Notes: generated by a model not told the origin, from the letters alone. A DNA stretch of 64,000 nt from Myxococcota bacterium (GCA_965228475.1 OZ245817.1:2560001-2624000); one strand, 5' to 3'. Counted from the stretch's first letter, positions 2,023 to 5,833 are shown. A program made the numbers and translations.

Positions 2023-2577
2023 ATGCGCACCATCGACCACATCCTTTCGCGCTGGCGGATCGGCAAGGCCGCCGCCTGGACGCGCCCGGGCGACCGGCTC
2101 CTCGACGTCGGATGCTACGACGGAAGCCTGATCCGCGAGGTGCGCCCACGCATCGCGAGCGCGGTTGGCATCGACGCCGTGGCCGAGCCGAGCGATGCGG
2201 GCGACGGCGTGCGCATCGTGCGAGGCCACTTCCCCGAAGACCTCTCCGAGCCCGACGGGAGCTTCGACTGCATCACGGCCCTCGCGGTGCTCGAGCACGT
2301 GACGGACCCGCCGGCCTTCGCCGCCGCCTGCCATCGCCTGCTCTCCCCCGGCGGCCGGGTCGTGCTGACGGTTCCCCACCCGCGCGTCGACGGCATCGTC
2401 GACACCCTGATCGCCCTGCGCCTCGCCGACGGCATGGACTTCGAAGAGCACCACGGGTTCGACGTCGGCCGTACACGCCCCATCTTCGAGGAGGCAGGGT
2501 TCAGGCTGCGGGCCGAGCGCGCCTTCCAGCTCGGCCTGAACCGGCTCTTCGTGTTCGAGAAGCCGGGGCCCGCCTAG
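2023..2577 (+). CDS. Class I SAM-dependent methyltransferase
   Basis: LLDVGCYDG motif I; FDCITALAVLEH; LSPGGRVVLTVP. Confidence 0.85.
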   Translation: MRTIDHILSRWRIGKAAAWTRPGDRLLDVGCYDGSLIREVRPRIASAVGIDAVAEPSDAGDGVRIVRGHFPEDLSEPDGSFDCITALAVLEHVTDPPAFAAACHRLLSPGGRVVLTVPHPRVDGIVDTLIALRLADGMDFEEHHGFDVGRTRPIFEEAGFRLRAERAFQLGLNRLFVFEKPGPA

Positions 2578-4823
2578 GGCCGCCGCAGGTCGGGGCCGGC
2601 GAGCTCGCTCCCGGCCCGGACGGCGCGCTCGGAAACCGAGAGCGATCCACTCCCGCCGCGCGCTCCCACGAGCGTGAAGTCTCCCTCGCCCTGCACCGCG
2701 CTTCCCGGCGTGGCCTCCGTCGAGTACGGCAGCACGAAGACGTAGCGGCCCTCTCCGTCGGCTTCGGCCACCGCGCGGTAGCGGTGCCGCCGACCCTGGG
2801 CCGTTCGCAGGACGAGGCTCGCTTCGACGCGCTCCCCCGGCGCGGCAAAGCCCACGACCCGCGCCCCCGCGACGATCTCCCAGATCCCGAGGGCGAAGCC
2901 CGGGGGCTCCGCAGCGAATTCGAGCGCGCGGCCGCTGCGCTGGTGCCAGAGCAGCCGATGATGCGAGAGCGCCGGCACGGCGGGTGCGAGTGCATCGGCC
3001 GGCCATGCCGTCCCGAAAGCGAAGGCCAGCCGGTGCGCGAGGGTGCCCTCCGGGTACGCGGCGGTGCGGCCGGCGCCGTGGCGGTCCGCCATCACGTAGC
3101 GGACGCCGAGCGCCTCGAGCATCGCGACGGCCTCCGCCTCGTCCCGCGCCGCGAAGTAGCGTTCGGCCGCGTCGTAGTTCGCGCGCCCGCCGTAGACGCC
3201 GAAGTTGTCCTGGATGAGCGGCCGGCGCGCGCGGTAGCGCAGCATGTGGCCCGCGTCCCAGCTCGAGAGCACGGCGTACTCCGGCAGGACCTCGGGATCG
3301 AACCAGCCGGAGGTCGGCGGGGAGTTCGCACCGAGCCACCGCGAGCCGGCATCGACGAGGCGGTTGCGAACGCCGTGCGGCCCGCCGCGGGCGACCGCCG
3401 GGTCCGCGTGGGCGCGCGCGTGGCCCTGCCAGCGTTCGAGATGGAGCGCCAGGAGGCCGTCGGCGAGGAGCAGCAGGAAGACGGCCGCGAAAGCGCCTGC
3501 CGCGATGCGGCGCCCCGTGCCCCAGCGCCGCCAGGCCGCTGCGACGAGGGGCGCCGTCTCGTAGAAGAGCCATCCCCAGACCAGCACGTAGAAGATGGAG
3601 AAGCTGTTCCCGAAGCGGCGCTGCAAGCTCGTCAGGACGAAGAAGAGGAGGCTCATCCCGAGCAGGACGAAGCGGTCTGCGGACGCGCCCGTCCGCACGC
3701 TCCGCCAGGCGAGCCAGGCCCAGGCGAAGGGGAAGAGGAAGGCCAGGATCGTCAGGCGGGAGACGATGAGGTCCGGGGAGAACGGGCGCAGCTCGCGGAC
3801 CTCGTGCTGGAAGGCCTCCTCCTTGGAGAACCATCCGGCCCCGGTCGCGACGACGTCCGAGAGGCCGGGGATCACGAGAAAGGCCGCCGCAAGCGCCACG
3901 ACCCCGGCGGCGACGGCGGCACCGATCCGCCGGCCGCGCGTGGCCCCGAGACCGGTTCCGAACGCGAGCGCCGCCACCCCGAGCACCCCGGCCGCGACCG
4001 CGAAGAAGGCCGGCTGGAAGTTCGAGAGCACCCACGGGCTCCACGGTCCGAACTCCGGCCACGCCTGCCCCCACCCGAACGGCGCGAGGACGACCGCGGC
4101 CACCGCGTTCGCGAGGGCCAGCCACCGGGCCCGGGCGCGCGCATCCTCCGCGCGCTCCGCGAGCAAGGCGTACAGCACGAGCAGGCCGTCGAAGGCACCG
4201 ACGTGGATCAGCGCTCCCGGCCACAGCAGCAGCAGCGCCGCGAAGAGCCCCCCGAGACCGAAGGCGCTCGCCAGCCCCGGTGCACCCGCCCGCGATGCGG
4301 AAGCGAGCGCGACGCCCGTCAGAGCGACCGCCCCGAGCGCAACGGCGACGTGGTGGTCGAGCTGCCCGGCCTGGGAGTGCAGCAGGTGGACGGGCAGGAC
4401 GGCGAGGAGCCCCCCGGCCAGCCACCCGGCCCCCGGCGAGAAGTGCCGCCGTCCGACCCACGCGACGCCGACCACGGCCAGGGCGCCGAGCACCGCCGGC
4501 ACGCGCGCGGCGACGTGTTCGACGGCCGTCTCGTCGCCCTCGGGCGCCACGGCGCGGGCCAGCGCCGCGATGCTCCAGTCGAAGGCCGGCGGCCAGACGA
4601 TGTGCCCGCCGTGCGGGTAGTTCACGTAGCGGTCGAAGTCGAGGACGTCGGGAAAGCGCTCCACCGAGTAGGCGATGCGGCGCATGTGGTAGTAGGGATC
4701 GCCGCCGGCGGTGAAGTGCACGCCGTCGGGCTGGAGGACGAGGACCTCGGACTGCGCGCGCAGGCTCCACGCGGCGGCGAAGAGCACGAGGAAACCGAGA
4801 GCGACGAGGAGCGGGCGTCTCAT
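2574..4823 (-). CDS. STT3/AglB-like oligosaccharyltransferase (GT-C fold)
   Basis: GGDPYYHMRR, FDRYVNYPHG, DHH, EVRE, many TM helices, SSWDAGH (WWDYG-like), QDNFG, C-terminal beta domain ending VLPYST. Confidence 0.82.
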   Translation of the reverse strand: MRRPLLVALGFLVLFAAAWSLRAQSEVLVLQPDGVHFTAGGDPYYHMRRIAYSVERFPDVLDFDRYVNYPHGGHIVWPPAFDWSIAALARAVAPEGDETAVEHVAARVPAVLGALAVVGVAWVGRRHFSPGAGWLAGGLLAVLPVHLLHSQAGQLDHHVAVALGAVALTGVALASASRAGAPGLASAFGLGGLFAALLLLWPGALIHVGAFDGLLVLYALLAERAEDARARARWLALANAVAAVVLAPFGWGQAWPEFGPWSPWVLSNFQPAFFAVAAGVLGVAALAFGTGLGATRGRRIGAAVAAGVVALAAAFLVIPGLSDVVATGAGWFSKEEAFQHEVRELRPFSPDLIVSRLTILAFLFPFAWAWLAWRSVRTGASADRFVLLGMSLLFFVLTSLQRRFGNSFSIFYVLVWGWLFYETAPLVAAAWRRWGTGRRIAAGAFAAVFLLLLADGLLALHLERWQGHARAHADPAVARGGPHGVRNRLVDAGSRWLGANSPPTSGWFDPEVLPEYAVLSSWDAGHMLRYRARRPLIQDNFGVYGGRANYDAAERYFAARDEAEAVAMLEALGVRYVMADRHGAGRTAAYPEGTLAHRLAFAFGTAWPADALAPAVPALSHHRLLWHQRSGRALEFAAEPPGFALGIWEIVAGARVVGFAAPGERVEASLVLRTAQGRRHRYRAVAEADGEGRYVFVLPYSTEATPGSAVQGEGDFTLVGARGGSGSLSVSERAVRAGSELAGPDLRRP

Positions 4824-4906: not shown

Positions 4907-5833
4907 ATGGCCGAACACGACCCCATCCTGATCGAGCGAGCACGGAACCTCTGGACGAGCTTCGGGCGCAAGTTCCCCGCCATCGAGAAGTCGACCCAGA
5001 TCGGCTGGCCCGAGACGCGCTTCGACCAGATCGGCGGTCTCGCGGGCCCGAAGGACGAGGTCCTGACCTTCGCCTGCGCCGCCACCAGCCCCGACGTCTA
5101 CGGCCGCTGGGGAACCTTCCCGCCCTCGGGCCTGCTGCTCATCGGCGCACGCGGCACCGGCAAGCAGATGCTCGCCGAGGCGCTCGCCGAACAGGCCGGC
5201 ACCGGCTTCCTGAAGATCCGCATCCCGACGCTCGTGATGGAGACCCTGCGCCACGGCGGCAAGGTCGGGGAGATGACCGAAGGCTGGAGCCAGACGCTCT
5301 CGGAGCTGCCGCCGGTCACGGTCTTCTTCGGCGAGCTCGAGTTCTACCAGGCCCACGAGTTCGGTTCCCAGCGCGATGACCTCCCGATCGGCCCGGTCAT
5401 GGACTTCCTGCTCGACCTCGTCGACCGCACCGTGGCGGTCGAGCACGCCCTGACCGTCGGCTCGACGAGCTACCCGGACACGCTCCGGCCGGCTTTCCTG
5501 AGCGACCGGCGCTTCGAACGCGTCGTCGAGGTGAACCCGGTCTTCCCGGGCGACGTCGTCGAGTCCCTGCGCATCCACGCCGAATCGGCCAGCAAGCGGG
5601 CGGGCCGGCCGCTGTTCGAAGAGGTCGACTGGCTCGAGGTCGTCCGGCCCTACGCCGATCATTCCATCGCCGAGTGGGTTCGGATCCTGCACGGCGTGCT
5701 GCGCCGCAAGGCGCGCTGCGAGGCGGCCGGCGAAGCCGTGACGCCCGTCGTGACCGAGGACCTGGTCAGCGAAGCCGCCCGCGTCCAGGGCACCAAGAAG
5801 CGCTTGAGCTACGGCGAGGGGACCTACCTCTAG
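4907..5833 (+). CDS. Degenerate AAA+ ATPase of the proteasome-ATPase/Cdc48-like clade, C-terminal GTYL
   Basis: FDQIGGL, PPSGLLLIGARGTGKQ (Walker A-like), VFFGELE (Walker B-like), STSYPDTLRPAFLSDRRFER (SRH-like); start ATG 4907. Confidence 0.75.
   Translation: MAEHDPILIERARNLWTSFGRKFPAIEKSTQIGWPETRFDQIGGLAGPKDEVLTFACAATSPDVYGRWGTFPPSGLLLIGARGTGKQMLAEALAEQAGTGFLKIRIPTLVMETLRHGGKVGEMTEGWSQTLSELPPVTVFFGELEFYQAHEFGSQRDDLPIGPVMDFLLDLVDRTVAVEHALTVGSTSYPDTLRPAFLSDRRFERVVEVNPVFPGDVVESLRIHAESASKRAGRPLFEEVDWLEVVRPYADHSIAEWVRILHGVLRRKARCEAAGEAVTPVVTEDLVSEAARVQGTKKRLSYGEGTYL

Follow-up and report, generated by a model that had tools for sequence, protein, structure and literature searches.

Here, we describe a compact AAA protein of 308 amino acids from a Myxococcota genome which, as judged from its sequence, is a real and class-wide protein and a member of no known proteasome-regulator family. 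With a probability of about 0.5, we propose that it is a ring-forming cap or activator of the 20S proteasome that works without ATP hydrolysis, in a manner resembling Bpa/PafE. Such an ATP-independent cap appears likely because the docking tail is fixed while the catalytic residues drift, and because a complete proteasome is encoded in the same genome. The intact and conserved AAA fold, four drifting catalytic positions and the loss of the aromatic pore loop also speak for this reading.

Sequence and fold of the compact AAA protein

The window, i.e. the whole stretch of DNA that was analysed (64,000 nucleotides), carries the gene as an open reading frame with an ATG start and a TAG stop. An in-frame TTG upstream, at 4823, was rejected as the start since homologues begin near M1, and a promoter and terminator scan at the gene found nothing. 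Contigs of three public runs or assemblies are identical to the stretch, with 0 differing letters, and are possibly the window's own source. Residues 76-209 match the Pfam AAA family (PF00004; E-value 1.3e-12, 48.8 bits for a cut-off of 21.2) and the AlphaFold model, with a mean pLDDT of 91.7, has the AAA fold; on both grounds the protein is a classic AAA member. The top structural match is the ATPase domain of PAN (3h4m; Z 22.8, rmsd 3.1, 254 aligned residues with VIA-align), and p97, Rpt and FtsH structures lie within 1 Z of it. The features of the gene are as follows, where conservation refers to the 120 homologues listed (the query and the best 119 of 1055 matches):

4907..5833, + strand: compact AAA gene with relaxed catalytic motifs (Pfam, AlphaFold, PAN structural match)
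4922..5005, + strand: N-terminal helical segment, residues 6-33 (N14, W16 and R21 invariant, 120/120)
5108..5116, + strand: W68-G69-T70 loop, family signature (invariant, 120/120)
5144..5167, + strand: Walker A GARGTGKQ (G80, G85 and K86 invariant, position 87 relaxed)
5243..5263, + strand: pore-1 region, no aromatic residue (aromatic at 113-118 in 1/120)
5318..5335, + strand: Walker B TVFFGE (E143 invariant, position 142 relaxed)
5333..5413, + strand: pore-2 segment E143-L169, candidate client- or partner-binding surface (strongly conserved)
5462..5470, + strand: sensor-1 STS, Asn lost (N in 5/120)
5483..5521, + strand: second region of homology (SRH; first Arg, 199, lost; R202 invariant; new invariant R194)
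5690..5713, + strand: H-G/A-V-L-R-R-K-A helix of the small subdomain, candidate ring interface (H262, L265 and R266 invariant)
5819..5830, + strand: C-terminal G-T-Y-L tail on a flexible linker (family pattern G-x-Y-[L/V/I]; low pLDDT in AlphaFold)

The initial annotation had read a Walker A ending in GKQ, a Walker B FFGE, a sensor-1 TS and a GTYL end, and had noted the lack of an aromatic pore loop and of an OB or coiled-coil domain; each of these points was confirmed by translating the open reading frame. Indeed, Q87 ends Walker A, Walker B is VFFGE with G142 and E143, sensor-1 is STS with S188, the pore-1 region reads LRHGGKV, and the protein ends in YGEGTYL. OB and coiled-coil domains are absent, the AAA module starting at about residue 35 after a short helical segment. 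Two features had escaped this first reading. The position of the first SRH arginine is occupied by S199, R202 alone being retained of the two arginines (R199 is found in 2/120 listed homologues), and an N-terminal helix, residues 6-29, is conserved. Neither the signature of active AAA unfoldases (GK[T/S], hhhhDE, a sensor-1 Asn and two SRH arginines) nor their aromatic pore-1 loop is found in the protein.

Drift of the catalytic positions and conservation elsewhere

The Walker residues of the query proved to be the extremes of a relaxed family and not its rule: position 87 is T in 43 of the 120 listed homologues, R in 26, S in 15, K in 14, H in 10 and another residue in 12, and position 142 is D in 73, E in 22, N in 17, H in 5 and G in 1. 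Thus, the altered residues singled out initially are present, but 58/120 keep T/S and 73/120 keep D. On the family tree, the switch between T/S and other residues at position 87 took place 11 times and that between D and other residues at position 142 took place 14 times. No covariation of the two positions was found among these homologues (34/24/39/23 split); both T/S and D are kept in 34/120, and the query, with Q87 and G142 together, is an extreme case. T/S, D and the sensor-1 Asn occur all together in 0/120. By these counts, the Walker A Thr, the Walker B Asp, the sensor-1 Asn and the first arginine finger are relaxed in the window's class and not uniformly erased. The description "catalytically dead" is a reading from motifs, and is limited by the invariance of K86, E143 and R202. 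Slow hydrolysis is possible, since E143 and R202 are invariant and 34/120 listed homologues keep T/S and D.

Other parts of the protein are under strong constraint. Altogether, 45 columns are invariant in the 120 listed homologues, and G80, G85, K86, E143, R194, R202 and the IGGL motif are fixed. Within the SRH, R194, R202, E204 and R205 are found in 120/120; within the pore-2 segment, E143, E145, F146, R156, P160 and G162 are invariant and D158, P163, M165, D166 and L168 are found in 119/120. R267, K268 and A269 of the lid helix are kept in 118-119/120, and this helix presumably lies at the ring interface, a role that we assign by analogy. In the alignment to VAT, the W68-G69-T70 loop falls on the L-G-I loop of D2, which we take to be a ring-interface element. 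In the AlphaFold model, the N-terminal segment forms helices at residues 6-22 and 24-29 and stands where an OB or coiled-coil domain would be; it is common to the sister branches and aligned with that of the sister group in the profile comparison.

A decaying pseudogene was rejected given that the gene is present in 40/48 genomes of the class, with no internal stops in any match and 45 invariant columns. Over 20 shared genomes, the mean identity of compact AAA is 62%, vs 82% for ARC. Three long matches that resemble rmlB-type domain fusions were also discarded; in the one examined, P0121, the reading continues out of frame into the gene that follows.

The C-terminal tail

A G-x-Y-[L/V/I] end is found in 120/120 listed homologues, with G305 and Y307 invariant and eight different residues at position 306. 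The initial annotation had made conservation of the terminal YL decisive, and this expectation was borne out, the sister branches even having the exact GQYL. In a tree built without the tail columns, positions 305 and 307 change 0 times and position 306 changes 28 times. The commonest residue at each of positions 301-304 reaches only 17-42% among the listed homologues. Since G305 and Y307 are invariant while 301-304 vary, the conservation of the tail goes beyond chance. Residues 302-308 have a pLDDT below 50 and follow the long last helix. The tail is present in 79/80 genome loci, and the same odd end is seen in a gene copy with an assembly gap.

The protein thus carries the conserved C-terminal G-x-Y-hydrophobic end with a free x that characterizes regulators of the GQYL/HbYX type. 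For the mycobacterial GQYL, two sources describe the Q as freely replaceable (PMC6017811; PMC12288473), and the free x position of the family matches this tolerance. ARC proteins of the class end in GQYL in 27/30 cases and in GQYV in 2, one being cut off. The two GQYV ends are in L184 (G051) and L162 (G112), and the compact AAA of G051 is also V-ended; a matching of L/V ends between the two proteins was rejected since GQYV cases are too few.

As a control, G-x-Y-[L/V/I] ends were counted in the open frames of at least 250 codons of the genome, where they occur in 5/9689: ARC, compact AAA, a MocR-type regulator, a ThDP enzyme and one further frame. The GIYV end of the MocR-type regulator is a chance end, seen in 1/30. 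The acetolactate-synthase-like ThDP enzyme (G000:C1:4661991-4663640, - strand, locus L271) ends in GGIYV; 29/30 genomes of the order have a G-x-Y-[L/V/I] end, and STYV is found in 4/4 of family f9. Its penultimate Tyr is kept in 34/34 class copies and in 0/16 orthologues from outside the class, where no prcA was detected. As this enzyme has no known proteasome role, a conserved GxYL-like tail is not a proof of docking. Its tail is nonetheless the weaker case, because the residues before it are conserved too, in a protein that is about 78% identical throughout. The enzyme is possibly a second 20S ligand or a carrier of a fixed structural change.

The proteasome of the same genome and the distribution of the gene

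The initial annotation had predicted a Pup- or UBact-type proteasome in a Gram-negative lineage and had tied its fate to the presence of 20S genes in the genome. Searches of the genome answered both points in the affirmative, with a complete cluster in the order arc-dop-pup-prcB-prcA-pafA (G000:C1:669788-676664, locus L006), 1.89 Mb from the compact AAA gene. They returned prcB and prcA at about 673.6-675.2 kb of C1, two genes of the Pup-ligase family and an ARC over its cut-off, ending in SSGQYL. PrcA, PrcB and Pup also exceed their NCBIfam cut-offs; Pup is matched by TIGR03687 and ends in GGE, making the tag of the Pup type. Gram-negative Pup-proteasomes were already reported (PMC5666114; PMC4254994). 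PrcA aligns with the mycobacterial alpha-subunit 3h6f with no gaps over the part that contains R26 and K52, and both residues are invariant in 10/10 class sequences; in the mycobacterial alpha-subunit, R26 and K52 grip GQYL by holding the Tyr and the terminal carboxylate (10.1101/249060). The genome thus encodes a cognate 20S that has the pocket residues. Bpa was not found in the genome or in any of the 48 class genomes, by a search in which no positive control matched.

The cluster is flanked by an ftsK-lolA-like pair on one side and by an AglB/STT3-like gene on the other. AglB/STT3-like genes are found beside both compact AAA (2574-4823, - strand) and the proteasome cluster (C1, about 676.7-679.0 kb, + strand); in the 80 related loci, no gene of this kind recurs as a conserved neighbour.

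We searched 251 genomes of the phylum, 48 from the window's class and 203 others. With a threshold of 1e-20, which would admit sister-branch proteins as these reach E-values of 1e-28 to 1e-39 against the query, the compact AAA gene was found in 40/48 class members and in 0/203 others. Similarly, prcA is present in 46/48 class genomes and in 0/203 others, and ARC in 46/48 class genomes. Among the 40 carriers, 38 have prcA; the other two are G212, which has an ARC match without prcA or Pup ligase, and G207, which has none of the three. G207 is 92% complete in 410 contigs and contains two copies of the gene (L019, i.e. G207:C195, and G207:C318), and its assembly may be incomplete or mixed. Conversely, 8 of the 46 prcA genomes have no compact AAA, profile search included, and five of them do not exceed 3.2 Mb; compact AAA thus looks like a dispensable accessory. 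The co-occurrence with prcA is weak evidence and counts as one event, as it is confined to a single shared lineage. No close member was found among 53 loci listed from viral contigs, the best having 30% identity.

The compact AAA clade and its sister branches

A profile search covering 1.84 billion representatives returned five full-length relatives, 308-321 aa long, that share the N-terminal helix and the WGTxP loop of compact AAA. Their ends are RYGQYL (in two), RTGQYL, EGAYL and PSLYL. The sources of relatives are labelled Nitrospinae, Deltaproteobacteria and NC10/Methylomirabilis, with single cases from Omnitrophota and Acidobacteriota; Methylomirabilota clusters rank next in the ESM Atlas. 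Profile-profile comparison with the sister group gave an E-value of 2.3e-56 over 300 columns, tail included.

For the NC10-type branch, we retained 118 of 120 listed proteins, P0163 and P0174 being excluded as members of other branches. Among these matches, 118/118 end in RYGQYL and have GKT/S, K-W-Y and DE, the sensor-1 N being kept in 112 and the first Arg in 114 of 118. A metagenome scan identified at least 8 loci of the compact clade, 7 of them full-length. Among these listed matches, 7/7 full-length loci end in RYGQYL and keep DE, with GKS, GKT or GKA in Walker A; all seven have lost the sensor-1 N and the first Arg.

The wider set consists of single-module AAA proteins of 370-580 aa with canonical motifs. 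These proteins (P0170-P0289) have a WGTxPP loop and form the outer group of the compact family. Many of them end in short G-F motifs, P0250 and P0271 end in TGQYL, and one protein is labelled Pacearchaeota.

In a tree of 107 hand-picked rows without a Cpa sequence (IQ-TREE, LG+G4, 263 columns), whose bootstrap was not fully settled, 35 compact proteins form a single clade (support 100/99), which lies within the longer proteins (100/100). This clade stands apart from ARC, PAN, FtsH and Cdc48 D1, the PAN and Cdc48 rows being labelled by length and layout. The branch of the window's class has a stem of 1.29 changes per column and short inner branches. GQYL ends are found in only 2/19 of the longer single-module proteins in the tree. 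An origin of compact AAA as an ARC duplicate was rejected by this tree and by score (24.7 vs 504.75 bits). Tree and profile comparison thus place compact AAA in a clade that has no name and in which the NC10 branch has retained all the ATPase motifs together with GQYL.

Gene neighbourhood

In the window, compact AAA stands by itself; the genes on either side of it, one AglB/STT3-like and one for a chemoreceptor, are on the opposite strand. Downstream genes in the 80 related loci are rmlB (40), a receiver-HD-GYP gene (56), a V4R gene (38) and a DUF4388-DnaJ gene (44). This block (L054-L133) is seen in about half to two thirds of the 80 loci; in the window's genome it is at about 1.95 Mb. None of dop, pup, prcB, prcA and pafA was found in the flanks of 110 class loci, nor any proteasome-cluster gene in those of 80 metagenome loci, and no neighbourhood link to proteolysis genes appeared there.

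Directly upstream and on the same strand, 27/80 loci have a double AAA gene (11-126 bp away in 26 of them) that we call Ycf46-like, a label given from its layout. Among the 48 class genomes, only those of family f3 show this adjacency. Moreover, the Ycf46-like orthologue is found in 0/6 members of family f4, where compact AAA is present in 5/6, and G062, G117 and G137 contain it without having compact AAA; this discordance led us to reject the Ycf46-like protein as an obligate partner. In the window's genome, the Ycf46-like gene (C1:160112-161590, - strand, L142) lies 2.4 Mb away, directly behind a T2SSE/MshEN ATPase gene.

Possible role of compact AAA and competing explanations

The conserved W-G-T loop and lid helix suggest that compact AAA would assemble as a homo-hexameric ring. 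The fixed G80, G85, K86 and IGGL point to a residual nucleotide binding that might switch docking on or off, and little or no hydrolysis and no chain threading would be expected. The G-x-Y-[L/V/I] tails could plug into the alpha-ring pockets at PrcA R26/K52; we regard it as highly probable that the tail binds the 20S. The 20S gate would then open and let in unfolded or loosely folded proteins, which might be captured at the pore-2 segment or at the N-terminal helix. Two published results stand against the simplest form of such an activator: six-tailed PafE rings did not activate (10.1101/249060), and PAN that has lost one or the other arginine still binds ATP but neither hydrolyses it nor docks on the 20S (PMC4608255).

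The same docking could also serve a brake, a storage lid or an assembly helper that competes with ARC for the pockets and opens no gate. The evidence from tail and co-occurrence applies equally to such a role, the lack of an aromatic pore loop means that no threading would occur, and the failure of six-tailed PafE rings fits it. In addition, PMC4254994 reports that Bpa blocks Mpa-dependent degradation by competition and that HbYX-bearing assembly factors exist. We nonetheless consider a brake or lid unlikely, since the constraint on the pore-2 segment and N-terminal helix exceeds what a plain lid needs and, with an NC10 branch that looks like an active cap, a retained activating role is the shorter path. 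Distinctly unlikely, in our opinion, is a tail unrelated to the proteasome, serving structure or partner binding in an AAA-fold adaptor of other function, which the class inherited alongside the proteasome but independently of it. Class-wide co-inheritance would indeed explain the co-occurrence, the ThDP enzyme keeps a GxYV end, G207 has the gene and no proteasome genes detected, and HbYX ends are found in about 0.72% of proteins of proteasome-less bacteria, according to PMC11475706. However, the tail is predicted to be disordered behind a variable linker, unlike that of the ThDP enzyme, the exact GQYL is found in sister branches of other phyla, and the scaffold belongs to the PAN/Cdc48 type of AAA modules, which are known as proteasome caps.

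Alternatively, ARC or the Ycf46-like AAA could form a mixed ring in which compact AAA is idle, bears the tails and offers R202 in trans. A subunit acting in trans would be expected to combine an invariant R202 with relaxed cis motifs in this way, the Ycf46-like gene precedes compact AAA in the 27 loci mentioned above, and Mpa tails are described as tucked away, with extra factors proposed (PMC12288473). The discordant presence of the Ycf46-like gene, its adjacency confined to f3 and its remote position in the window's genome stand against such a ring, which the distance of ARC and the Ycf46-like proteins in the tree makes improbable; the hetero-oligomeric partnership that the initial annotation had offered as an option gained no support. 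A slow but working ATPase cap is more doubtful still. It would rely on substitute residues, such as R194 in place of the first arginine finger and a Lys or Arg at position 87 in place of Mg2+. The invariant K86, E143 and R202, the new invariant R194, the 34/120 listed homologues with T/S and D and the fully canonical NC10 branch speak for it. Yet positions 87 and 142 changed state 11 and 14 times, to unrelated residues, the sensor-1 Asn and the aromatic pore residue are found in only 5/120 and 1/120 listed homologues, and the query has Q87 and G142 together.

We therefore retain a 20S cap that works without ATP hydrolysis as the preferred reading. More tentatively, and at somewhat short of even odds, we suggest that hitherto undescribed AAA caps without an N-domain serve the Pup-proteasomes of several Gram-negative phyla, and that an active GQYL ATPase gave rise to a nucleotide-sensing, non-hydrolysing gate opener, a change most complete in this class, where it would fill the place of Bpa. 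The bacterial proteasome regulators covered in a review (PMC12288473) are Mpa/ARC, Bpa/PafE and Cpa, all known from work on Actinobacteria, and Leptospirillum and similar Gram-negative carriers of the proteasome are described as being without Bpa (PMC4254994). If the proposal is true, compact AAA would be a fourth regulator, in use by these Gram-negative lineages. The family would then form a natural series with a canonical ATPase (NC10) at one end, a near-dead ring at the other and partly eroded forms in between, the tail being kept throughout. Such a series would separate the roles of ATP hydrolysis, ATP binding and the tail alone in proteasome gating, and would show a route from an AAA motor to an ATP-independent activator.

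Comparison with known systems

Our literature search, which covered the main text of openly accessible papers, found no paper on the compact AAA family, and nothing relevant on proteasomes in Myxococcota, Rokubacteria or Methylomirabilis or on bacterial pseudoATPase caps. Single compact AAA members may be listed in the ProEnd HbYX catalogue (PMC11475706).

Compact AAA shares with Mpa/ARC (TIGR03689) a classic AAA module, a C-terminal G-x-Y-L, the same genome and the same predicted 20S pockets. It differs by its score (24.7 bits for a cut-off of 504.75), by the lack of coiled-coil, OB and beta-grasp domains, by its separate clade and by its relaxed catalytic and pore residues. Its gene also lies outside the Pup-proteasome cluster, the true ARC being elsewhere in the genome. 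With Bpa/PafE (PF10759), compact AAA has in common a GQYL-type tail on a flexible linker, a predicted role independent of hydrolysis and a gene far from the cluster, as is reported for Bpa (PMC4254994); its occurrence falls largely within that of prcA (38/40 carriers, in a single lineage). The folds are however unrelated, compact AAA being an AAA protein with no PF10759 match at E-values up to 0.1, and Bpa has twelve tails whereas six are predicted for compact AAA.

Among solved structures, PAN is the nearest relative (3h4m, Z 22.8, 100 bits), with VAT D2 at 81 bits. Nonetheless, compact AAA has only about 25% identity with PAN, Cdc48, VAT and AMA, which are active unfoldases, and differs from them as a single module with relaxed motifs and no N-domain in a separate clade. 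Its scores remain far below the family cut-offs, with 62 vs 500 bits for PAN (TIGR01242), 62.8 vs 802.65 for Cdc48 (TIGR01243) and 34.8 bits for FtsH, and it is a member of neither TIGR01242 nor TIGR01243. According to PMC3493965, one and the same proteasome is capped by several AAA families, which use HbYX tails for this. Finally, Cpa is an additional AAA protein that interacts with a bacterial 20S, is encoded off-cluster and co-occurs with prcAB (PMC6017811), and compact AAA would resemble it in this. Unlike Cpa, which has two AAA modules, an active ATPase and no HbYX tail, compact AAA combines one eroded module with a tail.
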